Assembly (NCBI GenBank): GCA_947175215.1 | Contig: CAMWLR010000001.1 | Span: forward strand, 6,199 to 70,198 | DNA: 64,000 nucleotides | DNA from: an uncultured Porphyromonadaceae bacterium | GTDB taxonomy: Bacteria; Bacteroidota; Bacteroidia; Bacteroidales; Muribaculaceae | Direction: 5' to 3' | Shown: one piece after another, positions 1 through 15,440 of the stretch | How the letters are laid out: each line of letters begins with the position of its first letter | Position numbering within the stretch: position 1 is the stretch's first letter | Made by a program: the position numbers and the translations under genes | Notes under the pieces: model-generated | Database searches by the model: none | The model's input: the letters and a program-made list of their open reading frames with translations, nothing else | Told to the model about the DNA's origin: nothing

Positions 1-2
1 CG

Positions 3-707
3 TCAGGCGTTCCCTTTCTCGGCTTTAAGACGCGCGGCCTTCTCGAGCGCGGCCTTGACCTTGGCAACCTTCTCGGGGTCACCGGTAGCCTCGGCGGCAG
101 CGAGTGCTTTCTTGGCTTTCTCGTCAAGTTCGATTGCCGGAGTGGTACCCTCGGCGGCTTTCTTGGCTGCGGCAGCAGCCTTAGCAGCCTCAAGTTTAGC
201 TTTCTTCTCAGCCTCAAACTTAGCGATCTGCTCGGGGGTAGGCTTAGGCTCGGGTTTCTCGGGGAGGTAATTGAGCTGTTTGACGAGCTTAGAGCGTGTA
301 AACACAGCCTGCTCGAAATCATTGCTGAACTCGATGGCATCTGTCGGACAGGTCTGCACGCAGAGCTGACAGAATGTACAGCTGCCGAGATCGTAGATAT
401 AACGATCAATCTTCTTTTTCTTCTTGCCGTCCCAGGTGTCTACCATCTTGGTCTCAAGAGTGATAGTGCCGTTGGGACAGTTTCTCTCGCAAGTGCCGCA
501 AGCGATACATCTGTGGTTGCCGTCCTTGTCATAGATAAACTGCAAGGTAGCGCGGAAGCGCTGGGCAATGTGCATATTCTCGCGGTTGTCGGGATATTTC
601 TCAGTGATCTTAGGGGTGACGAACTCCTTGCCGGTCACCTGAAGACCCTTGACAAGGCTTGCCACACCTTTACCCAGACCTGAAAAATAATCTTTAATAC
701 TACCCAT
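3..707 (-). CDS. nuoI: NADH-quinone oxidoreductase subunit I (2x[4Fe-4S]) with Lys/Ala-rich C-terminal extension
   Basis: Two ferredoxin motifs, CIACGTCERNCP and CTFCQLCVQTCP; N-terminal TxxYP-type segment (ITEKYP); same strand as nuoA-H. The TGA stop at 3-5 is inside the window. Confidence 0.93.
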   Translation of the reverse strand: MGSIKDYFSGLGKGVASLVKGLQVTGKEFVTPKITEKYPDNRENMHIAQRFRATLQFIYDKDGNHRCIACGTCERNCPNGTITLETKMVDTWDGKKKKKIDRYIYDLGSCTFCQLCVQTCPTDAIEFSNDFEQAVFTRSKLVKQLNYLPEKPEPKPTPEQIAKFEAEKKAKLEAAKAAAAAKKAAEGTTPAIELDEKAKKALAAAEATGDPEKVAKVKAALEKAARLKAEKGNA

Positions 708-751
708 ATTGGTTTTAAGCGATATGATATTGTCTATTATTATTCATGGAG

Positions 752-1630
752 TTACTTCACCTGGCCACCGAGGATGTCGAGAAGCTCGGTCGTTATGGCC
801 TGCTGGCGAAGTTTGTTGAACTCAAGCTGTAACTGGTCGAATAGCTTCTTGGCGTTATCGTTGGCGCTCTGCATGGCCATCACACGGGCAGCCTGCTCGC
901 TTGCGCGGTTCTCGGTGAAGACATCCTGGATGACCGCCAGCAGATACATCGGCAGCACCTTGTTGAAGATAACTTCGGCCGAGGGCTCGAAGATATATGG
1001 ACGGGGCTTGATCTCACTGTCGAGGTCGGCAAAAGCCCCCGCCGTCACCGGCAGCAGCTGAGATGTCTCAAGACGCTGGCGGCTCACAGACTTATATGAC
1101 ATATAGAGCACGTCTATCACGTCATATTCGCCGTTGAGGAATGAGTCGCGCAACCGCCAGGTGAAATCCTTGACTTCGGTAGTCTTTGAGTCAACATCCT
1201 CGGGGAGTTTGACATTGACCCCGCCGACCTTGATCTTGGCGGCAGCCTTGGCTATCTTGGCACCGATCGGGATGACGGTGATGTGGACAGTGTCGCCGTA
1301 TTTTTCGCGCAACCCGGCGAGATGACTCACCAACTGCTTGAAGATATTCATATTGTATGCGCCACAAAGACCATCATCAGATCCCCACACCACCACTGCA
1401 TAATTGCTGACCGTATCGCGCGGTGTCATCAGCGGCGAATCGAACGATGCGTCTGATCCGAGCAGGTTGGCGATGATCGTCTCGACCTGCTCGCGGTAGG
1501 GCTTGAGCTGACGCAGAGCCCCCTCGGCCTTGTGCATTTTGGCCGATGAAATCATCTTCATCGCTCCGGTGATCTTCTCTGACGAAGCCACCGAGCCGAT
1601 TCTGCCTTTGAGTTCTCTTAATGTTGCCAT
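752..1630 (-). CDS. atpG: F1 ATP synthase gamma subunit
   Basis: MATLRELKGRIGSVASSEKITGAMKMISSAK start; SDDGLCGAYN; SEQAARVMAM; FNKLRQQAITTEL end. Confidence 0.97.
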   Translation of the reverse strand: MATLRELKGRIGSVASSEKITGAMKMISSAKMHKAEGALRQLKPYREQVETIIANLLGSDASFDSPLMTPRDTVSNYAVVVWGSDDGLCGAYNMNIFKQLVSHLAGLREKYGDTVHITVIPIGAKIAKAAAKIKVGGVNVKLPEDVDSKTTEVKDFTWRLRDSFLNGEYDVIDVLYMSYKSVSRQRLETSQLLPVTAGAFADLDSEIKPRPYIFEPSAEVIFNKVLPMYLLAVIQDVFTENRASEQAARVMAMQSANDNAKKLFDQLQLEFNKLRQQAITTELLDILGGQVK

Positions 1631-1694
1631 TAACGGTTATTTGCTGTGATCCGGTTAAATGTTATATGAGTGGTTAAGGGTCATCCGCGGGATG

Positions 1695-3269
1695 TCATGC
1701 ATAACGCTGGGCAACCTCCGAAGCCGCCTGCGTGAGCTTGGCAGTGCAATCGTCGGTGAGCTGGCCCGACTTGATTACGTCCATGACATCTGTCTGATGT
1801 TTGGCGTGGAGCAACTGCAACAGTCCCTGCTGGAAGTCGGCCACCTTGTCAAGAGGCACGTTTGAGAGCAGGCCGTTGACACCGCAATAGATGACAGCGA
1901 TCTCATCCTCGACAGCCCAGGGTTTATACTGGGGCTGAATCAGGAGCTGCTGGTTCTTGCGGCCGCGATCGATCACGCGGGCTGTCACAGGGTCGATATC
2001 GCCACCGAACTTGGTAAACGATTCGAGCTCGCGGAACTGAGCCTGGTCGATCTTGAGCGTACCGGCCACCTTCTTCATCGACTTGATCTGAGCGTTACCA
2101 CCCACACGCGATACTGAGATACCCACATTGATGGCGGGGCGGATACCGCGGTTAAACAGAGCTGTCTCGAGGTAGATCTGACCGTCGGTGATCGAGATTA
2201 CGTTAGTGGGGATGTATGCTGACACGTCGCCGGCCTGAGTCTCGATGATGGGGAGCGCGGTGAGTGATCCGCCGCCCTTGACGATAGGCTTGAGCACCTC
2301 GGGGAGGTCATTCATCTTCTCGGCCACTGCCTGATTGTCGATAATCTTGGCGGCACGCTCGAGCAGACGCGAGTGCAGGTAGAAAATATCACCGGGATAA
2401 GCCTCACGACCCGAGGGACGCTTGAGGATCAACGAGATCTCACGGTAAGCGACAGCCTGCTTTGAGAGGTCATCATAAACGATGAGCGCATCGCGACCTG
2501 TGTCACGGATAAACTCGCCGATAGCCACCCCGGCAAAGGGTGAATAGTAGCGCATGGAAGCGGAATCGGCAGCGGTGGCCGCTACCACACAGGTATAATC
2601 GAGGGCACCATGCTGACGTAATGTCTCAACAATAGCAGCCACCGATGATGCCTTCTGGCCGATGGCGACATAGATACAATAGACAGGTTTGCCTTCCTCG
2701 TAATTCTTTTTCTGGTTGATTATAGTGTCGATCGCGATAGCGGTCTTACCGATCTGACGGTCACCGATAATCAGCTCACGCTGGCCACGGCCGATGGGCA
2801 CCATCGAGTCGACAGCCTTGAGACCGGTCTGCAACGGCTGGTTTACAGACTGGCGGAAGATGACACCCGGAGCTTTGCGCTCGAGAGGCATCTCATATAA
2901 TTTACCCTCGATTGGCCCGCGGCCGTCGATGGGTTCGCCGAGGATATTGATGACACGGCCAAAGAGCCCCTCTCCTACCGGTATCGAGGCGATCTTGCCG
3001 GTACGACGGACAGTCATATTCTCGGTAACCGAGTTAACGTCGTTGAGCAGGATGACACCGACATTGCTCTCTTCGAGGTTAAGTGCCACACCTCTGACAC
3101 CGTTTTCAAACTCAACGAGCTCGTTGGCGCAGACGTTGTCGAGACCATAGACGTGAGCTACACCGTCACCGACTTCGAGCACGGTTCCAACCTCTTCAAA
3201 AGCAACAGACTTGTTGACATTCTCGAGTTGCTGCTTCAAAACTTCAGATATCTCGCTTGGATTAATCAT
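1695..3269 (-). CDS. atpA: F1 ATP synthase alpha subunit
   Basis: GDRQIGKT P-loop, [47 protein letters not shown]. Confidence 0.98.
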
Positions 3270-3313
3270 TTGTCCAAAAAGTTGTTATGAGCCATTCTCA
3301 GCTTTTCAGGGGG

Positions 3314-3901
3314 TCAAGCCTGCTTCAAAAGCTTCAATCGCAATTGTTTAAGTTCATTCTTTACCGAGGCGTCGAGACGCTCGTTGTCAATATCGACCGT
3401 AAATCCGCCGATCAGCTCGGGGTCAGTGGCAAATGCAGCCTCTGTCTTCCCCCCGTCGAGGTGAGCCTCAATCAGCTTCATCAGCCTCTGCCGTTCGGGG
3501 TCGTCAAGCGGTTTGGCCGAGACCACCGTCACTCTGTATATCCTGTTGGCCTTGCGATAAATATCACAATACGCCCGGGCGACAGCAGCGGCAATCGGGA
3601 GTCGCTTGTTGGTCGACAGCAACTTCAGGAAATCGGTGTAGACCTCCGTGACATCCTCTCCGGTCGTTTTTGCATCAGCGCCGTCACCCTTGGCGGCCGG
3701 ATCACCGGCAGTAAGCAGCAATGCGAGTTTATCCTTGTCTGCTACAAACGGATTGGCGATAGCATCATCAAGAGAGGGATTGTCGGCAAAACTCCTTCCG
3801 AGGTTGCCCATGACACGGTAAAGTCCCTTATCGGCCCCCTTCTCGCAAGCATACATATAGAGAGCCTTGGCATAACGTTTGGGAATTAAACCTTCATTCA
3901 T
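3314..3901 (-). CDS. atpH: ATP synthase delta subunit
   Basis: IPKRYAKALY start and DPELIGGF...LDAS end typical of delta/OSCP; lies between atpF and atpA. Confidence 0.92.
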   Translation of the reverse strand: MNEGLIPKRYAKALYMYACEKGADKGLYRVMGNLGRSFADNPSLDDAIANPFVADKDKLALLLTAGDPAAKGDGADAKTTGEDVTEVYTDFLKLLSTNKRLPIAAAVARAYCDIYRKANRIYRVTVVSAKPLDDPERQRLMKLIEAHLDGGKTEAAFATDPELIGGFTVDIDNERLDASVKNELKQLRLKLLKQA

Positions 3902-3936
3902 TGCGATAACGGATTACAATGGGTGATCCTCGGCGG

Positions 3937-4434
3937 TCAGTTGTGACTTTCTATTTCGTCAAGGTAGCTGTTGACCAGTTTGCGCTGGGCTGCGTCATCT
4001 GAGAGCTGACTGCGTGTAACTTTGCCTGCAATCTGCAATGCTACACGGCTGACTTCGTCACGCAGATTCTGCTCAGCCTCGCGACGACTCTGCTCGATAG
4101 AGAGCTTGGCGGCATCTTTCTCTTTCTGAGCCTCTTTCTTTGCTTCCTCACGTGCCTCTTCAATAATCTGGGCTTTCATGCGGTTAGCCTCTGCGATAAT
4201 GTCGGCCTCCTTACGGTGCGCCTCCTGTATCTGCCTGTCGGCCTCGAGCTGAGAGTTTTCGAGCTGTTCCTTGGCGTTTTGAGCATACTCAACACCCTTA
4301 TCTATAAGGTCGGCACGACCGTCGATGCCCTTCATTATGGCAGGCCAGGCAAATTTCCACAGGATGAAAAACAGTATGGCAAACGCCACAAACATCCAGA
4401 TGGTCAAGCCAAAATCAACTTTGAAAAGTTCCAT
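3937..4434 (-). CDS. atpF: ATP synthase Fo subunit b
   Basis: Start moved to MELFKVDFGLTIW (ATG at 4434). One TM helix (FAILFFILWKFAWPAI) followed by a charged coiled coil. Confidence 0.93.
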   Translation of the reverse strand: MELFKVDFGLTIWMFVAFAILFFILWKFAWPAIMKGIDGRADLIDKGVEYAQNAKEQLENSQLEADRQIQEAHRKEADIIAEANRMKAQIIEEAREEAKKEAQKEKDAAKLSIEQSRREAEQNLRDEVSRVALQIAGKVTRSQLSDDAAQRKLVNSYLDEIESHN

Positions 4435-4563
4435 AGTTAAAATAACCTCATTGTTAAGGGTTAAGCATTTGTGTTGATGTCGGTGACACACGCTCACCGA
4501 CCGGTATCAATACTCTTGTCCGCGGAGACATCCCTGCCGGGTGTCTCCGTCGGTCAGCAAAGT

Positions 4564-4845
<282 letters not shown>

Positions 4846-6015
4846 TTATTTGTTCGTTACTGTGGGTTGAGCTTCAGGCCCGTGATGCTCCTCGTGCTCC
4901 TCATGCTTAGCCTGGGCAAGCGAGATGAAGATTGTCGAGAGCATCGTGAACACGTAAGCCTGTATGAAGCTGACCAATACGTCTATCAGGAGCATGAACA
5001 CCGAGAACAACACCGAGACAACGGCTGTACCCGAGGCCACGGCCACGCCCATAGCTGCAAAGATAAAGATCAGCATGGTCAGAATCAAGACGATCATATG
5101 GCCGCCCATCATGTTGGCAAACAGACGCACCGTCAGAGCCGCAGGTTTGGTAAAGATTCCGAAAACCTCGATTACCTGCATGATCGGCAGGGGGAACTTG
5201 AGCCAAAGGGGAACATCGGGCCAGAAAATCTCTTTCCAATAAACTTTCGTGCCAAAGAAGTTTGTCATCACAAAAGTCATCAGGGCGAGCACCAGCGTCA
5301 CGGCAATGTTACCTGTTACGTTCGCGCCACCCGGGAAGACCACGATCAGACCCAACAGATTCATAAAGAATATAAAGAAGAAGACTGTCAGCAGATAGGG
5401 TGCAAACTTGGGAGCTTTCTCCTTTAATGTCGACTTGATGACACCGACATAGATAAATTCCACGAGTGCCTCTATCGCGCCCGTCATCTTGCGGGGAGCT
5501 TTGAAAGGATTCTTCTTGTGCCAGCGGGCCAGCTGTAGCACCAGTATCAGCACCACAATGCAGGCGATAAAGATGGCACATACGTTTTTGGTGATAGAGA
5601 TGTCCCACGGCTTAATCTCCTTGCCGTCGACAATCTCTACGAGTTTACCTTTGTCATCACCCTCAGTGGCTATCTTGAATGTTGCTTTACCATCGACATA
5701 CTCTTCTCCATGAGTGACACGAGAGGATGAGAAAATATGCAGGCCGTCGCTCCCCCATACGATAATCGGCAAGGGTATGCGCTTATGATGATTGAAAGGC
5801 ACCTCCCAGCCATAAGCGTCGCCGAGATGCTCAAACAGAGTCTCCTTGATCCAATAACCGGGGTCTTCGGCTTTGTCGGCCGACTCAGATACCGATGCAT
5901 CGGTTGTTGCATCGGTCGCCTGCGCGAAAGAGCAGACAGCCCCGGTAACAATCAAAACCAGTATTAAAAGCAACTTCTTCATGCTGAAGCTATGGGGTTT
6001 CTCTTTAACAATCAA
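4846..6015 (-). CDS. atpB: ATP synthase Fo subunit a with N-terminal extension
   Basis: KPAALTVRLFANMMGGH and FIQAYVFTMLSTIFI motifs. The true start may be MKKLLLIL at 5982. Confidence 0.95.
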   Translation of the reverse strand: MIVKEKPHSFSMKKLLLILVLIVTGAVCSFAQATDATTDASVSESADKAEDPGYWIKETLFEHLGDAYGWEVPFNHHKRIPLPIIVWGSDGLHIFSSSRVTHGEEYVDGKATFKIATEGDDKGKLVEIVDGKEIKPWDISITKNVCAIFIACIVVLILVLQLARWHKKNPFKAPRKMTGAIEALVEFIYVGVIKSTLKEKAPKFAPYLLTVFFFIFFMNLLGLIVVFPGGANVTGNIAVTLVLALMTFVMTNFFGTKVYWKEIFWPDVPLWLKFPLPIMQVIEVFGIFTKPAALTVRLFANMMGGHMIVLILTMLIFIFAAMGVAVASGTAVVSVLFSVFMLLIDVLVSFIQAYVFTMLSTIFISLAQAKHEEHEEHHGPEAQPTVTNK

Positions 6016-6245
6016 TAAATACAGACGGTCACTACATCATGGTCGATATCCACAATACCGCCTTCGACCTCAGTCTCATGGCGCTCAGAGCCCTCGGCAT
6101 AGCGGATAGTACCCCTCACAAGGGTCGACACCAGCGAAGCGTGGCGCGGAAGCACGGTAAATTGCCCCATCTCGCCGGGGAGTGTGACCACTGAGGCCTC
6201 ACCCTCAAAAAGCACTTTCTCTGCTGAAATTATCTTGAGAACCAT
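6012..6245 (-). CDS. atpC: ATP synthase epsilon subunit (short, beta-sandwich only)
   Basis: LKIISAEKVLFEG...LPGEMGQFTVLPRHASLVS...GGIVD; directly downstream of atpD. Confidence 0.92.
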   Translation of the reverse strand: MVLKIISAEKVLFEGEASVVTLPGEMGQFTVLPRHASLVSTLVRGTIRYAEGSERHETEVEGGIVDIDHDVVTVCIY

Positions 6246-6281
6246 AATAATGCGTCGATATATATATACTGAGGTGACAGA

Positions 6282-7811
<1,530 letters not shown>

Positions 7812-7828
7812 TCAGGGGTAAGATAAAA

Positions 7829-8935
7829 TTACTGGGGGAGCTGTCCGAAATAGAGTTTTTCGGTAACGATCCATACCATCAGGGCGAGGTTGACCAGGTT
7901 GATGGGGAGGAGATATTTCCACTCGAGGGTCAGCAGCTGGTCGATACGCAGACGCGGATATGTCCACTTAAACCAAATGATGATAAACGAGATGATGAAT
8001 GCCTTGCCGAGGAACCACACTACAGAGGGGATATAACCCATGATCTGGTTAAATCCGTCCCAACCCTCGATGCGGAAAGGCATCCAGCCTCCGAAGAAGA
8101 GGAGGGTGGCAACGCCTGATACGATAAAGAGGTTGAGGTATTCAGCAAGATAGAAGAAACCGAAGTGGATACCTGAATACTCGGTATGATAACCGGCTGT
8201 CAGCTCGCTCTCAGCCTCGGGGAGGTCAAACGGGCCACGGTTAGTCTCGGCAGTACCGGCGATCAGATATATCACGAATGCTATGATAGCGGGGATATGG
8301 GCCGAGAATATAAACCAATGGTCGGCCTGAGCCTCGACAATCTCACCGACATTCATCGTACCGGCAAAGACAACCATAGTGAGTATCGACAGGCCGACAG
8401 AAAGCTCGTAGCTGACCATCTGAGCGCCCGAACGGAGCGCACCGATGAGTGTGAACTTGTTGTTTGACGACCAACCTGCCAGCAGAATACCGAGCACGCC
8501 GATCGACGAGCAGGCCAGCAGGAAGAAGATACCGATATTGAAGTCGATAATCTGCAGACCGTTACCCCAGGGGAGGACGGCAAAGCAGAGCATCGAGGCG
8601 ATGATCACCAGATAGGGCGCTAACGCAAAGAGGAATTTGTCGATATGATTAAGTGATATAAGCTCCTTGATGAGGATCTTGAACATATCGGCACAGCTCT
8701 GCAACAGACCCCAGGGGCCGACACGGTTAGGTCCGAGACGGCACTGGAAGTATGCACAGATCTTACGCTCGTAGAGAATGTAGAAGAGTGCCAGCAGCGA
8801 ATAGACCAGCAGCAGCCCCACGCCAACGAGCAGACACTCAAGTGTTGTGGCCAGCCACGAGGGCATATAATTGTTCAACATCGTGTCGAACCATGTCGTC
8901 AGGCTGCTGAAATTATCTATGGTGTAATTACTCAT
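7829..8935 (-). CDS. nuoH: NADH-quinone oxidoreductase subunit H
   Basis: [52 protein letters not shown] motifs. Confidence 0.97.
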
Positions 8936-9005
8936 GACAAGTAACGTGAATGTGAATCAGGATATTTCGTTTCTAAAATTCTCGCATTGGTTTATCGGTC
9001 GGCGA

Positions 9006-10628
9006 TCAGCGGTCCATATCAGGCACGATATAGTCCATTGATCCGCCGATGGTGATAAGGTCGGCGATCTTCTGGCCGCGGGTGATATGATCAACCACAG
9101 CGCCGGCGGGAAGACCGGGTGTCGCCAGTTTGAGACGGTAGGGCTTGGCCGATCCGTCACTCTCGATATATACGCCGAACAGACCGCGGCATCCCTCGAC
9201 AACCTGAAACCAATGTCCGGCGGGGAGTTTGATCACCTTAGGCACCTTGGCGCAATATTCACCCTCGGGGAGCATCTCGATGAGCTGCTCGAGGATGCCC
9301 TTTGACTGGAGTATCTCGTCGACACGGTTTTTGAAACGTGCCATCGAGTCACCCTCGGTGCGGATGACCTGATCAAACTTAAGCTCTGAGTAAACACTGT
9401 AAGGATGTGTCTTGCGAACATCGCAGGCCCAGCCTGACGCGCGGCCTGACGGGCCGGTGATTGCCCACGATTTGGCATCGGCGTTAGAGAGTACACCCAC
9501 GCCGGTCAGACGGCTCTTGGCAACGACGTTGCCCGTAAAGAGTTTGTTATATTCGGCTACGTTCTTGGGGAGGACGGCGAGCAGCTCCTTGACATCCTTG
9601 ATGAAGTCAGGGTCGAGGTCGGCCATTACACCGCCGATACAGTCATAATTGAATGTCATGCGGGCACCGCAGGTCTTCTCCATAATGTCGAGAATCTGCT
9701 CACGCACTCGCAGTGTATAGAAGAGCATCGTGGTCGCCCCGAGGTCCATACAGAATGTACCGATAAAGAGGCAGTGTGACGCGATACGCGACAGCTCATC
9801 CATCATCGTGCGTATCACCTGAGCGCGGCGGGGCACCTCGATGCCGGCTGCCTTCTCGATGGCCAGACAGAGGCCATGGTGATAGTTGTGTGCCGAGAAG
9901 TAGTCGAGACGGTCCATGAAATGGAGTGTCTGCATATATGAGAGATCCTCACAGAGTTTCTCGACACCGCGGTGGATATAGCCCATGTAGACATCGATCT
10001 TCTGGATTGTCTCGCCATCGACAGCCGTGCGGAAACGGAGCACGCCGTGAGTGGCAGGGTGCTGCGGGCCGATGTTGACGACAAAGTCATCCTCGTTGAA
10101 GATACGTGTTTTCTCTTCTTTGATCGATCCGTCGGGCATCTCTATCCATGACTGGGTATAGTCGGTCTGACGCTCGCTCTGAGTCGACACGGGGTTGATC
10201 TCGGGTGACGCGTCATAATCTTTGCGGAAGGGAAAGCCCACCCAGTCGATATTCAGGAAGAGACGACGCATATCGGGGTTATTGATAAAGATAATCCCGA
10301 AGAAATCGTATACCTCGCGCTCATAAATGCCGCCGATGGCATAAAGGTCGGCGATAGAGTGGAGCATGGGATTGTCACGGTCAGTGGTCTGCGTCTTGAT
10401 CGAGATAAACTCTTTGGTCTCGGTCGATGTCAGATAATAGACACATCCCAGCGAAGTCACCCAGTCCATACCGACGATAGTGACGAGATAGTCAAAACCG
10501 TGGTCGTCGCGGAGTGATTTCACCAAATCGTGAAGCTTGGCGTCGGGGATGTTCACCAGCAAAATCTCACCTTCCTCAAAGGTTGCTTCGGGGAAGATCT
10601 TAGAGATTTTTTCCTGCAAAATAGCCAT
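9006..10628 (-). CDS. nuoCD: NADH-quinone oxidoreductase fused subunit C/D
   Basis: NuoC motif EREVYDFFGIIF...GFPFRKD followed by NuoD motifs NIGPQHPATHGVLR and GYIHRGVEK; ends PDMDR. Confidence 0.96.
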   Translation of the reverse strand: MAILQEKISKIFPEATFEEGEILLVNIPDAKLHDLVKSLRDDHGFDYLVTIVGMDWVTSLGCVYYLTSTETKEFISIKTQTTDRDNPMLHSIADLYAIGGIYEREVYDFFGIIFINNPDMRRLFLNIDWVGFPFRKDYDASPEINPVSTQSERQTDYTQSWIEMPDGSIKEEKTRIFNEDDFVVNIGPQHPATHGVLRFRTAVDGETIQKIDVYMGYIHRGVEKLCEDLSYMQTLHFMDRLDYFSAHNYHHGLCLAIEKAAGIEVPRRAQVIRTMMDELSRIASHCLFIGTFCMDLGATTMLFYTLRVREQILDIMEKTCGARMTFNYDCIGGVMADLDPDFIKDVKELLAVLPKNVAEYNKLFTGNVVAKSRLTGVGVLSNADAKSWAITGPSGRASGWACDVRKTHPYSVYSELKFDQVIRTEGDSMARFKNRVDEILQSKGILEQLIEMLPEGEYCAKVPKVIKLPAGHWFQVVEGCRGLFGVYIESDGSAKPYRLKLATPGLPAGAVVDHITRGQKIADLITIGGSMDYIVPDMDR

Positions 10629-10648
10629 GTATGTTGTGTGATGGTTTA

Positions 10649-11278
10649 TCAGTCAATGTTAGCCGCCGAAGTATCTTCGATGGGATGAGCGGCGAGAAAT
10701 TCCTTCTGGTTCTCCTGACGGTTGACACCGCCAAAGAAGCGCTCGACCTTGATCTTGCGCGATAACTGCATGATCGAGTATATCATAGCCTCGGGACGCG
10801 GAGGACATCCGGGACAGAACACGTCAACCGGGACAATATCCTCGATACCCTTGGCCACGTGATAGCTCTTACGGAACGGGCCGCCTGAGATGGCACACGA
10901 ACCGCATGCAATCACATATTTGGGCTCGGCCAGCTGATCATAGAGGCGACGGAAAACGGGCACCATACGGTGAACGATCGTCCCGGCGACCATCATGAAG
11001 TCAGCCTGACGGGGCGAGGCTCGGGCAACTTCCCAGCCAAATCGCGCCATGTCAAAACGGGCGGCTCCGAGCGACACAAATTCAATGCCGCAGCAACTGG
11101 TGGCGAAGGTGAGCGGCCAGAGCGAGTTAGAACGCCCCCAGTTGATCAGTTTGTCGAGAGACCCAACCAGCACGTTGGTCCCCGACTCGCGAAGCTCCGT
11201 AACGAGCTTCTCTATATAGTCGTTATCCTTCCAGGCATCATAAGGCATGCCCTGGGCGGTAACCTGTTTCATTTCCAT
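10649..11278 (-). CDS. nuoB: NADH-quinone oxidoreductase subunit B
   Basis: SLWPLTFATSCCGIE, SPRQAD, GSCAISGG, PGCPPRPE motifs. Confidence 0.97.
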   Translation of the reverse strand: MEMKQVTAQGMPYDAWKDNDYIEKLVTELRESGTNVLVGSLDKLINWGRSNSLWPLTFATSCCGIEFVSLGAARFDMARFGWEVARASPRQADFMMVAGTIVHRMVPVFRRLYDQLAEPKYVIACGSCAISGGPFRKSYHVAKGIEDIVPVDVFCPGCPPRPEAMIYSIMQLSRKIKVERFFGGVNRQENQKEFLAAHPIEDTSAANID

Positions 11279-11646
11279 TCAAGTGCTCCTTTCCGCCAGG
11301 CATACACAAGACCCAGCACTAAGATTGCGAAAAAAACAGCGACGCAGAGAATGCCTTCACTACCGAGGGCACGCATCTTGACGGCCCAGGGGAACAGAAA
11401 GACAGTTTCTACGTCGAACATCAGGAAGAGGATGGCGAACAGATAGTAACCTACATGGAAACGCGCCATTGATTCACCACGGGTGGGGATACCACACTCA
11501 TAGGCCTCTCCTTTCTGCGGATTAAAGGAGCGGGGAGAAATAAGGCCGGCGATCCACAGAGCCAGCCATACCAGCCCTGCTCCGGTGAGCAACGCCACGA
11601 TGGCAAATACTGCGGCATCGATGCCAAAAATTCCTAAAGATATCAT
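11269..11646 (-). CDS. nuoA: NADH-quinone oxidoreductase subunit A
   Basis: KGEAYECG, YYLFAILFLMFDVETVFLFPWA, WRKGALEW. Confidence 0.97.
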   Translation of the reverse strand: MISLGIFGIDAAVFAIVALLTGAGLVWLALWIAGLISPRSFNPQKGEAYECGIPTRGESMARFHVGYYLFAILFLMFDVETVFLFPWAVKMRALGSEGILCVAVFFAILVLGLVYAWRKGALEWK

Positions 11647-11868
11647 GAACTATATTGTTGTGATTTCAGGTTAATTCATAGCGACGGCCGATGAGATTCT
11701 CACAGGCTCGCGCGCCTTTAGGGTTGTAAGCACAATCATGACTCAGCCTCAAACCTGAGGTAACTGCAACAGGCAAGCACAATCCTCGCCGGCACTTTAC
11801 CCACTGGTAATCAGCAGAATATAATTGTCACCGTAAACACAGACCCGTCGGCCTGAGATTTACGGCTA

Positions 11869-11876
11869 CAAAGATA
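11869..11876 (-). promoter_or_regulatory. Bacteroidetes housekeeping -7 box (TATCTTTG) for the nuo/atp operon
   Basis: Exact TAnnTTTG on the minus strand about 220 nt upstream of nuoA; a TTTG lies 16 nt further upstream (11893-11896). Confidence 0.65.
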
Positions 11877-12027
11877 GGAATTTTTTAGTAATCAAAGGTT
11901 AAAAAACTGCCACAAATTTCGCTTTAAGGCCAACTTTTCAAAATAACCGTGAAATCTCCGCCTTAATTTTTAGCATACTTTAACTCATCTCCCTCCCCTC
12001 CTCCTCCTCAAATCCACCCGACTTTAT

Positions 12028-12035
12028 TATCTTTG
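12028..12035 (+). promoter_or_regulatory. -7 box (TATCTTTG) upstream of mcrB
   Basis: Exact TAnnTTTG 44 nt before the ATG at 12080. Confidence 0.6.
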
Positions 12036-12079
12036 CCATATATTATTATGGTGTAACTCACTATACCGTTTCTTGAAAA

Positions 12080-14092
12080 ATGGATAAAGACATTCTATCA
12101 GACGTAACTGCCGCTCCCGGTTACTTTGACAATCCGATATTCAGCATTATCCCCGGTGAGACTTTCTATTTACAAAAAGGTGCTGATTCATGGCAAGCGT
12201 GGAAAAATCTTCAGATCGATGATGAGTTGCTCGACCGTATGCTTTATATGAAGTATGAAGATTTTCGCGACACAACCGACGATGAAATCAGACCTTTGCG
12301 TGATGCAATATTCAGTCTTGTAGCATACTGCGACTCTAAAGCATTTGACAAGCAGAGACTTAATGTATATCCAGACAAGCGTGCAGTTGCTAAATCGGGC
12401 ATTCGTCAGAATTTCTGGGTCAAGAATCTTTTAAGATATAAGAAAGATCCCGATAACGTATCAACCGGCATCCGTAACGTAATCAACTATCTTGAAAATC
12501 CTGAAACTAATTGGCCGATTGTATCAGAGTCACATCGGCGCTATATGATACATTGGTTGACCGGAAAAGCATATAACCCCGCCACATTCAATGCTGATAT
12601 GTCGGCAGCCCTTGACAAATACTGGCCGGGTCGCGGCATACCCGAGAACCGTACTGTTTTTCTAACCCGTCTGATGTATCAGTTTGACAGCCATTGGAAA
12701 AAGGGACTGACGGTAGCCGGACTATTCGCTCATGAGAAACATGAGGATTGGAAACAAAGTCTGCTCAATGAGATGGCTGATAAAGGTTATGGATGTATCT
12801 GGTGGCATAAATTGCCGGTAAACTATCAGCATGACATCATGAACTCGCTGCGCGACACGATTGCCGGCGGCGAAGCATTTGACTTTTATTATCTCTCACA
12901 TAATTATGCCACATATCACGCACGTGTCATTGACTTCTCCACAAAAAACGAGTACTCTAAAAAGAGAGAAGAATGGAGCAAGTTGAATCCGGCATCGTTC
13001 TGCAAAGAATTCGATGAATATGAAGACGTCAAAAGAGGCGCAGAGATAGTTTTCTTGATAGACCTTTTTGAAAAAGTCGACCGACCGATATACGTCGACC
13101 GATTCGTAAGATATAAGAGTATGAAATATGATCACATTCAAGGTTTAGCAGCATACACCTCGATCAAGACAATGAACGAAACAGAACATAAAATCTCACC
13201 ATTAGCCAATGAGTTGGCCGCATTACTCAAACAGACCCGTAATCTTATTCTCACCGGAGCACCGGGTACCGGAAAGACATATCTCGCCAAAGAGATAGCA
13301 CGGGCGATGGGTGCCATCTATGGCTTCACCCAATTCCACCCCTCGTATGATTATACCGACTTTGTCGAGGGGTTGCGACCGGTCAAACATGACGGTAAAG
13401 AGATAGGCTTTGAACTCAGGCCCGGTATTTTCAAGAAATTCTGTATCGATGCCGTTGACTCTCAGCAAAACGGCGAGACAAATAACAGTTCGTGCTATCT
13501 CTTTCATATCGACGAGATAAACCGAGGGGAACTCGCCAAGATATTCGGCGAATTGTTTTTTGCAATTGACCCGTCATATCGGGGAGAGAAAGGGAAAATT
13601 GCCACTCAATATCACAATCTTATCGAAAAGGACGATACATTTGCCGACGGGTTTTACATCCCCGAAAATGTCTATATCATCGGCACAATGAATGATATAG
13701 ACCGAGGTGTTGAGACAATGGACTTTGCTATCCGCCGCCGCTTTGCATGGCGTGAGATCAAAAGTGACGAGCGCCTCGAGATGCTCGACACACTTATCGG
13801 CGAGGGGGTATCACCAGACATAATTGAGAAGGCAAAAGGGCGTCTTAAATCGCTCAATAACGCCATCTCTGAGATACCGTCACTGGGGTCGCCATACCAT
13901 ATCGGACCGGCATATTTCCTTAGTATAACGAACTATATCAATTCTTCAGAGCCGTTTAAGGATCTGTGGAATTATCATCTTGAAGGTGTATTGGCCGAAT
14001 ATCTCAGAGGCACCGAGGATAAAGAGCAGACTATGAAATCACTCCGCCATCACTATGACACCCCCGTCTCATCAAAGGTTGACAACAACTGA
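12080..14092 (+). CDS. mcrB: McrB-family AAA+ GTPase (type IV restriction motor) with about 370 aa uncharacterised N-terminal region
   Basis: Walker A GAPGTGKT, QFHPSYDYTDFVEG, Walker B HIDEINR, McrB signature GTMNDIDR, FAIRRRFAW, IGPAYF; followed by an McrC-like gene. Confidence 0.88.
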   Translation: MDKDILSDVTAAPGYFDNPIFSIIPGETFYLQKGADSWQAWKNLQIDDELLDRMLYMKYEDFRDTTDDEIRPLRDAIFSLVAYCDSKAFDKQRLNVYPDKRAVAKSGIRQNFWVKNLLRYKKDPDNVSTGIRNVINYLENPETNWPIVSESHRRYMIHWLTGKAYNPATFNADMSAALDKYWPGRGIPENRTVFLTRLMYQFDSHWKKGLTVAGLFAHEKHEDWKQSLLNEMADKGYGCIWWHKLPVNYQHDIMNSLRDTIAGGEAFDFYYLSHNYATYHARVIDFSTKNEYSKKREEWSKLNPASFCKEFDEYEDVKRGAEIVFLIDLFEKVDRPIYVDRFVRYKSMKYDHIQGLAAYTSIKTMNETEHKISPLANELAALLKQTRNLILTGAPGTGKTYLAKEIARAMGAIYGFTQFHPSYDYTDFVEGLRPVKHDGKEIGFELRPGIFKKFCIDAVDSQQNGETNNSSCYLFHIDEINRGELAKIFGELFFAIDPSYRGEKGKIATQYHNLIEKDDTFADGFYIPENVYIIGTMNDIDRGVETMDFAIRRRFAWREIKSDERLEMLDTLIGEGVSPDIIEKAKGRLKSLNNAISEIPSLGSPYHIGPAYFLSITNYINSSEPFKDLWNYHLEGVLAEYLRGTEDKEQTMKSLRHHYDTPVSSKVDNN

Positions 14093-15440
14093 CAATAGCA
14101 TCTGCCGCTCTTATATGTCGCTACCCTCTGACTCCCCTGAGATGATTTTTCTCAGGGATCTGTCGGGTGTACCATTGAGCAGTCTTGGCAAGGAGAACGA
14201 TATGATCATCATCCCACCGGGCAATCAGAGCAGTGGAGATGAGGATAAACAACCTATCATCACACTCTATCGAGATGGCAGTATCGCCACCGGAAATCTG
14301 ATGGGATACGTCGGGAATGGGGATGTCACGTTCTCGATAACATCGAGATTCACCACACAACCCGATTATTTCCTGCACTATATGTTGTCACGAGCCATGT
14401 CTGTCAGGCTGTTAGACCTCGACCATCCCTACACAACCGATTCCCAACTAAACCTGCTCATCTATCTATTCCCCTACTATCTCAAAAGAGCGCTCTCACG
14501 TGGTATATACCGGTGCTATACCTCTCTCAACAAAAATGATGCAGCGATAAAAGGGACTGTCAATATTCCTCGCCATCTTCGTCACAATATTCCGTTCAGG
14601 GGAAAGATCGCATACTCCTCTCGCGAAAGACTCGCTGCCAATCACATCACCCAACTTATACGTCATACCATCGAGACGATAAGACAACTCCCCAACAGCC
14701 ATTATATATTGGCAGCCGACAGGGAGACAAGCCGATGTGTGGCTGAGATAACAGAGTCGACCCCATCTTATCAACGTAACTTACGCGAACGAGTGATACA
14801 TGACAATATCAAACCCGTTAATCATCCTTACTTTATCGAATATACCCCACTGCAACATCTATGCCTGATGATCTTGCGCCGATGCGGCATACACTACAAT
14901 GGCTCGCGCAATCATTTCAACGGCATCATCTTTGACGGAGCATGGTTATGGGAATCTTACCTCGACAAAGTTATCCGTGAAAAGAGCGGTAAGAGAGTAG
15001 CGTCAACCTTTCGGCATCCCGATAACCGTAAATCGACGGGAGCGATACATCTTTTCAACAGCCGCCGAAAGCATGGTGACCTTACATTTTCACCCGGCAG
15101 CTTTTATCCACGTTATCCTGATTTCATCACCGCCGGGTGTGTGATTGATGCGAAATATAAACTCCTCGATGATCACAGGCAACTGCAACGTGATGATTGC
15201 CATCAGTTAATCTCTTATATGCATATCCTCAACCTTGACAAAGGGATCTTTATTTTTCCTCATACTTCATCAGGCGTAATTCATTATGAATATACCCTCA
15301 ATGGTCTCGGGGGGAGAATCATCGTGATAGGTGTACCTATACCTCAAAACGCCGTGGATTACCGTGGATTCAGCCATGAAATGGCTGTGGCTGAGGGGGA
15401 GGTGTGCCGGATATTAGAGGGAATTGAGGGCGGCGATTGA
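14055..15440 (+). CDS. mcrC: McrC-family PD-(D/E)xK nuclease subunit
   Basis: Overlaps the end of mcrB; TGNLMGYVG, IIFDGAWLWESYL, YPDF...VIDAKYK, DCHQLISY motifs as in McrC. Confidence 0.82.
   Translation: MTPPSHQRLTTTDNSICRSYMSLPSDSPEMIFLRDLSGVPLSSLGKENDMIIIPPGNQSSGDEDKQPIITLYRDGSIATGNLMGYVGNGDVTFSITSRFTTQPDYFLHYMLSRAMSVRLLDLDHPYTTDSQLNLLIYLFPYYLKRALSRGIYRCYTSLNKNDAAIKGTVNIPRHLRHNIPFRGKIAYSSRERLAANHITQLIRHTIETIRQLPNSHYILAADRETSRCVAEITESTPSYQRNLRERVIHDNIKPVNHPYFIEYTPLQHLCLMILRRCGIHYNGSRNHFNGIIFDGAWLWESYLDKVIREKSGKRVASTFRHPDNRKSTGAIHLFNSRRKHGDLTFSPGSFYPRYPDFITAGCVIDAKYKLLDDHRQLQRDDCHQLISYMHILNLDKGIFIFPHTSSGVIHYEYTLNGLGGRIIVIGVPIPQNAVDYRGFSHEMAVAEGEVCRILEGIEGGD

Follow-up and report, generated by a model that had tools for sequence, protein, structure and literature searches.

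The window analysed here, a 64,000-nucleotide (nt) stretch of DNA from an uncultured Porphyromonadaceae bacterium with a GTDB lineage in the Muribaculaceae (assembly GCA_947175215.1, contig CAMWLR010000001.1, hereafter C1), carries a complete F-type ATP synthase (atp) operon inside the operon for respiratory complex I (NDH-1; nuo), between nuoH and nuoI. It corresponds to C1:6199–70198 of a 94-contig, 2.19-Mb assembly. Together the two sets of genes form a 21-gene cluster for an apparently NuoEFG-less, "headless" NDH-1 and the sole rotary ATPase detected in the genome. In our judgment the atp genes were probably placed there once, inherited with the nuo genes as a block and are read from the promoter of nuoA. 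The locus is a further instance of an already known, published family trait. What is added here is the exact insertion point, the spread of the layout to seven sampled families, tree support for a single origin, the co-divergence of the Atp and Nuo blocks, and a contrast in promoter and terminator signals between nested and stand-alone operons that includes their loss at the junctions.

Open reading frames (ORFs) with Pfam and NCBIfam matches give the order nuoA-B-CD-H, atpD-C-B-E-F-H-A-G and nuoI on the minus strand of the window, to which all cluster coordinates below refer. The gene order and both 44-nt junctions agree with those that the original prediction for this DNA had read from it. 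Since nuoJ, K, L, M and N lie directly left of the window on the same strand (C1:197–6163, from tblastn matches and ORF order), nuo genes flank the atp operon on both sides and the nesting is genuine. The complete cluster, nuoA-B-CD-H/atpD-C-B-E-F-H-A-G/nuoI-J-K-L-M-N, covers approximately 17.6 kb, with atp genes spanning 7.1 kb separating nuoH from nuoI, and each of its 21 genes is present as a single copy in the assembly.

The first nuo block consists of nuoA (11269–11646, 125 amino acids (aa); PF00507, E = 7e-35), nuoB (10649–11278, 209 aa; PF01058), whose SCCG, CGSC and CPGCP cysteine motifs resemble N2-cluster ligands by eye, a fused nuoCD (9006–10628, 540 aa; PF00329 and PF00346) and nuoH (7829–8935, 368 aa; PF00146, E = 6e-119; NF004741 above cut-off). 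Beyond the atp genes, nuoI (3–707, 234 aa) encodes Fer4 domains with both CxxCxxCxxxCP (4Fe-4S) motifs; its best NCBIfam matches are NuoI models, at scores below their cut-offs (TIGR01971, E = 1e-28). NuoA, B, C, D, H, I, J, K, L, M and N are all present, J to N by the assignment given above. A NuoF model (TIGR01959) found no match in the 92%-complete genome and did match control genomes; NuoE and NuoG were not searched separately. By its gene content the nuo part appears to be an 11-subunit headless NDH-1 without NuoEFG, a type known from Bacteroidetes (PMC4936053; PMC6560451). The C-terminal ~70 aa of NuoI (window 3–215) form a low-complexity tail rich in Ala, Lys and Glu (...AKFEAEKKAKLEAAKAAAAAKKAAEG...). 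Its length varies among Muribaculaceae, many relatives aligning to residues 1–165 only, and outgroup NuoI matches in tblastn are only ~440 nt (~145 aa) long.

All eight F-type subunits (alpha, beta, gamma, delta, epsilon, a, b and c) are encoded together according to Pfam and NCBIfam. They are F1 beta (atpD, 6282–7784, 500 aa; TIGR01039, 773.7 bits), F1 epsilon (atpC, 6012–6245, 77 aa; PF02823), Fo a (atpB, 4846–6015, an ORF of 389 aa from a TTG at 6015; PF00119 at residues 148–365), Fo c (atpE, 4564–4806, 80 aa; TIGR01260), Fo b (atpF, 3937–4497, 186 aa; PF00430), F1 delta/OSCP (atpH, 3314–3901, 195 aa; PF00213), F1 alpha (atpA, 1695–3269, 524 aa; PF00006, PF00306 and PF02874) and F1 gamma (atpG, 752–1630, 292 aa; TIGR01146, one match in the genome, G000), and the equivalog cut-offs were exceeded by atpD, atpG, atpB and atpE. 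The epsilon subunit has the beta-sandwich domain only, its TIGR01216 match being confined to profile positions 4–76 of 130, and lacks the helical C-terminal domain by which ATP hydrolysis is inhibited in many bacteria. Ahead of the Pfam ATP-synt_A domain, atpB has an N-terminal extension of ~120 aa (5650–6015) with a signal-peptide-like segment (MKKLLLILVLIVTGAVCSFAQA); translation probably starts at the ATG at 5982 (MKKLLL...) and not at the TTG at 6015.

The ion specificity of the enzyme was considered from its c subunit, which carries its carboxylate in the context ALIEGVALF and a helix with GIGIGKIG, and has Ile, Gly, Val and Phe at the ligand positions. These are without the Gln, Ser/Thr and Tyr of the Na+-binding set, which we take, after Ilyobacter tartaricus, to be a Gln in helix 1, a Ser or Thr beside the carboxylate and a Tyr one turn on; the comparison was made by reading the sequence against this motif. 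On this ligand pattern, the H+-type assignment that had been proposed for the synthase appears reasonable. A V-type ATPase subunit I was searched for in the genome without a match and NqrA is present, so far as sequence matches tell making the nested operon the only rotary ATPase detected in a genome that also encodes the Na+-translocating NADH:quinone oxidoreductase (Na+-NQR).

This arrangement is not peculiar to one genome; it is fixed across Muribaculaceae and occurs in at least six other families. The host belongs with the Muribaculaceae, as the closest relatives of its NuoI and AtpG are from Muribaculaceae or Duncaniella and G000 groups with four genomes of the same family in an RpoB tree (support 100). 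A scan for NuoI relatives, limited to one genome per species, returned 80 loci, nearly all from Muribaculaceae/Duncaniella or from mislabelled metagenome-assembled genomes. Wherever a Muribaculaceae locus reaches upstream of nuoI, atpG precedes it (78 of 78), and every locus long enough to show the full order has nuoCD-nuoH-atpDCBEFHAG-nuoI-N. Loci with the nesting include those of Duncaniella muris DSM 103720, two NCI isolates and the complete chromosome CP061009.

Beyond the family, AtpG was searched in 401 genomes sampled evenly from the whole order, comprising about 148 families, and the neighbourhoods of the 20 best matches outside Muribaculaceae were examined. Sixteen of these genomes, from six families, have the identical nested order: f135, which is Barnesiella (including the complete B. 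viscericola DSM 18177 genome, G359, and B. propionica, G135), f62 (Coprobacter fastidiosus), f105 (within a cluster including Ca. Gallibacteroides avistercoris), f104, f27 and f79. A stand-alone atp operon was identified in the other four, which represent three families (f131, f132 and f18, the last being Dysgonomonas). Another 20 genomes from 17 families also have atp genes without adjoining nuo genes, bringing the stand-alone operons to 24 genomes in 19 families, and a contiguous nuoA-B-CD-H-I-J-K-L-M-N is present in 12 outgroup genomes of ten families. The expectation that nuoH and nuoI are usually neighbors with atp elsewhere therefore holds in most Bacteroidales. Nesting was found in seven of the ~148 sampled families, where the order is kept without exception in ~95 species. 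Two outgroups, G251 (18 kb) and G160, have atp and nuo 18–25 kb apart on one contig.

The original prediction had named a previous description of the layout as a point that would count against it, and such a description exists: nesting of atp within complex I was reported for S24-7/"Homeothermaceae", now Muribaculaceae (Ormerod et al., 2016, Microbiome 4:36; PMC4936053). The published locus is from the same family and has the same two complexes, an 11-subunit NDH-1 without NuoEFG and an F-type ATP synthase, in the same nesting (PMC4936053). The main text of that paper gives it one sentence, in which the insertion point between nuoH and nuoI, transcription signals and an evolutionary analysis do not figure, and it names Barnesiella and Coprobacter as closest relatives without ascribing the layout to them (PMC4936053). 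Our literature search returned no other report of the layout, and none for Barnesiella or Coprobacter. The contiguous headless nuoA-N operons of Dysgonomonas and Prevotella bryantii (PMC6560451) resemble the nested one in their subunits, the fused nuoCD, the order within each half and the lack of NuoF, but in these and other Bacteroidales nuoH and nuoI are adjacent (matches 10–90 nt apart) and atp is located elsewhere. Likewise, stand-alone Bacteroidota atp operons, with the order atpD-C-(small gap or ORF)-B-E-F-H-A-G, share the eight genes, their order and the short epsilon with the nested copy, whereas the interval between atpC and atpB is ~500 nt in outgroup tblastn matches and ~80–110 nt in the nested clade.

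Phylogenies of three protein sets fit a single ancient insertion of atp between nuoH and nuoI, followed by vertical descent. In an RpoB tree of 38 genomes, 20 of them nested, all nested genomes fall in one clade (Shimodaira–Hasegawa-like approximate likelihood ratio test support 99) whose sole intruder is the long-branched G257 of family f137, and a clade of nested genomes only was not rejected by the approximately unbiased test (p = 0.29). The nested genomes likewise form one clade in the tree of AtpD plus AtpA (support 82) and in that of NuoCD, NuoH, NuoL and NuoM (support 99). Within this clade the Atp and Nuo trees have the same branching, with f105 first, then f62, f27 and f79, then Barnesiella, f104 and Muribaculaceae, as predicted if the fused cluster descended vertically after one insertion. 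The 2.3 kb upstream of nuoA are conserved within families, and between families only in Barnesiella and f105; this variation of the flanks suggests that the cluster was held together while its surroundings moved.

The only intergenic minus-strand TAnnTTTG in 1–12200 is TATCTTTG upstream of nuoA, which serves as the −7 box (11876–11869) of a candidate Bacteroidetes-type promoter (11869–11896) with a −33 TTTG at 11896–11893 and a spacing of 16 nt, identified by motif match only. The combined pattern TTTG-N17-23-TAnnTTTG has no match in the cluster; the nuoA box was recovered only by scanning for TAnnTTTG by itself. No TAnnTTTG is present in any intergenic gap inside the cluster, including the junctions between the nuoH stop and the atpD start (7785–7828) and between the atpG stop and the nuoI start (708–751). 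Both junctions fold to a minimum free energy (MFE) of 0 kcal/mol and are thus without a terminator hairpin, so that folding and motif scan confirm what had been claimed of them. The two 44-nt stretches share no similarity by eye, and no search with a repeat tool was made. A scan with sigma-70 and terminator consensus patterns was discarded, as its sites were no commoner than in shuffled sequence and its promoter type is unsuited to Bacteroidetes.

Relatives repeat this picture. Across 79 species the nuoH–atpD gap never exceeds 117 nt (median 48 nt) and contains the box in one of 79; the atpG–nuoI gap reaches at most 157 nt (median 51 nt), with the box in five of 94. Neither is longer than the gaps within nuo or atp. 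Stand-alone atp operons usually have TAnnTTTG within 300 nt upstream of atpD (15 of 19) and a terminator-like hairpin with T-run downstream of atpG (13 of 24), whereas the nested copy of Muribaculaceae has neither, no terminator-like site having been found after atpG in the Muribaculaceae loci scanned. Such a site follows nuoN in 48 of 84 nested clusters, and TAnnTTTG lies within 500 nt upstream of nuoA in 10 of 16 nested loci of other families. The recovery of signals in stand-alone atp operons, after nuoN and before nuoA indicates that the scans detect signals where they are expected.

The original prediction had placed both complexes on one transcript under the nuoA promoter. Because promoter and terminator signals are absent from either junction, this stands as the best reading for this genome, as a conclusion drawn from the signals and not as an observation; a single transcript is likely and well motivated here and for Muribaculaceae, and less so for the sister families. 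We propose that a complete Bacteroidota-type atp operon entered nuo a single time, between nuoH and nuoI, before Muribaculaceae, Barnesiellaceae, Coprobacteraceae and a number of uncultured families diverged from their shared ancestor, and that the cluster has since passed on vertically as one block. As the Muribaculaceae atp block is without the promoter box and terminator typical of stand-alone operons, its genes and the distal nuo genes would most likely be read through from the nuoA promoter as one message of ~17.6 kb, and the proton pump and the proton-driven ATP synthase would thereby be co-regulated. Dependence on the shared promoter would be the simplest reason for the persistence of the cluster, in that excision of promoterless atp genes would silence them, and co-regulation may add a benefit to retention.

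Several points weigh against this account. Genome G257 (f137, locus L111) falls inside the nested RpoB clade, yet it has a stand-alone atp operon of another lineage, related to that of family f7, and no nuoH. Either its nuo genes were lost and its atp operon replaced, or the tree has misplaced it; secondary loss of nuo was considered and could not be established, as there are no nuo relics around its atp operon and the atp genes are of the other lineage. The species tree was built from one protein, RpoB, by a quick search. A hairpin with T-run follows atpG in Barnesiella, Coprobacter and f79 (seven loci, comprising all positives of the nested clade), which suggests that sister families may terminate or attenuate transcription there and indicates that strict co-transcription of the two nuo halves is not general to the layout. 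Minus-strand TAnnTTTG motifs inside nuoCD (9381), atpB (5065) and nuoI (222) could be internal promoters, and Bacteroidetes promoters can deviate from this consensus. Lastly, the single transcript is argued from missing motifs only. As a separate observation, the post-atpG hairpin of the sister families is GC-rich and its T-run stands right behind it (L081, L082, L085, L090, L092 and L093–L095).

These observations lend some weight to an alternative in which transcription of the nested genes is divided among two or three units, atp and/or nuoI-N are driven independently by promoters that are intragenic or deviate from the consensus, and the adjacency is a historical accident without influence on expression. 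The three intragenic boxes and the hairpins behind atpG in sister families would be consistent with it, as would a strong hairpin without T-run in the atpE–atpF spacer of the window (4498–4563; MFE −28.1 kcal/mol, z = −3.67). However, the junctions are unstructured and short, 44 nt here and comparably so in ~80–94 species, and they are without the box carried by most stand-alone atp operons; Muribaculaceae loci are devoid of a terminator-like site after atpG, and the intragenic boxes number only three in ~11.6 kb. We therefore regard separate transcription as possible but rather doubtful. The atpE–atpF hairpin could be an element of RNA stability or processing that might shield the preceding atpD-atpE segment of the message. 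Its standing as a general conserved feature was ruled out, since only 18 of 55 Muribaculaceae loci, and none of 16 sister-family loci, have one like it.

A more far-reaching history is suggested by the atp genes of family f131 (L096 and L098), which are sister to the nested clade with support of 100 in the AtpD plus AtpA tree, while in the RpoB tree a group with support of 100 unites the nested clade with many non-nested families and excludes f131. This conflict could reflect an old horizontal transfer of the atp operon and is taken as a lead only, coming from quick trees with a single-protein species reference. Extended to its limit, it would mean that the lineage leading to Muribaculaceae, Barnesiellaceae and Coprobacteraceae took up an atp operon from elsewhere, with its nearest living counterpart in the distant f131, and fixed it in nuo; the 21 genes would since have been one obligatory unit of expression and assembly. 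In cells that oxidise NADH by Na+-NQR, this unit would tie their sole proton pump, the headless NDH-1, to their sole ATP synthase driven by protons, perhaps with physical association of the complexes. We consider this combined scenario very unlikely.

Retention of the nesting by a physical or mechanistic coupling of NDH-1 and ATP synthase, whether the two are assembled together during translation, form a supercomplex or support ATP-driven reverse electron flow (the last two raised in the original prediction), appears highly improbable. The exceptionless order in ~95 species of seven families while the flanks were shuffled, and the congruence of Atp and Nuo trees inside the clade, are compatible with such coupling. 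The apparently H+-type c subunit and the Na+-NQR in the same cell also mean that NDH-1 may be the main proton pump feeding the ATP synthase, and a related idea has been raised for Prevotella (PMC6560451). On the other hand, the cluster has no extra gene, fusion or linker protein, all of its parts being ordinary family members, and the same two complexes run from separate loci in most Bacteroidales. Dependence on a shared promoter explains retention equally well, and sister families appear to terminate after atpG. None of the results speaks for a physical supercomplex or for reverse electron flow. A chimeric metagenome assembly as the source of the order, as might be suspected of a 94-contig draft, can be dismissed given the same order in 78 Muribaculaceae loci including isolates and a complete chromosome, in the complete Barnesiella viscericola genome and in Coprobacter fastidiosus, and the even GC content across both junctions.

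Between the candidate promoter box and the nuoA start codon lies a putative 5′ leader of ~222 nt (11647–11868) with an MFE of −77.3 kcal/mol (z = −3.18 versus shuffles). Rfam gave no match in 1–12300, the leader included. The leader is predicted to be strongly structured and may regulate the cluster as a whole. Upstream of nuoA and divergent from it, a restriction pair of an McrB-like AAA_5 GTPase (670 aa) and McrC (461 aa) is encoded on the plus strand (12080–15440), in a region of lower GC content (0.40–0.48 vs ~0.53).

The main use of the analysis is to correct a false impression of novelty and to delimit a layout whose parts are themselves ordinary. The layout marks a multi-family clade, as a rare genomic change common to all of its sampled members. 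Muribaculaceae are among the most abundant bacteria of the mouse gut. A fixed and probably co-transcribed cluster would link the NuoEFG-less NDH-1 of these bacteria to the cell's only ATP synthase and offer inexpensive access to the role of that enzyme, since one promoter with its long, structured leader should then govern the expression of all the genes.

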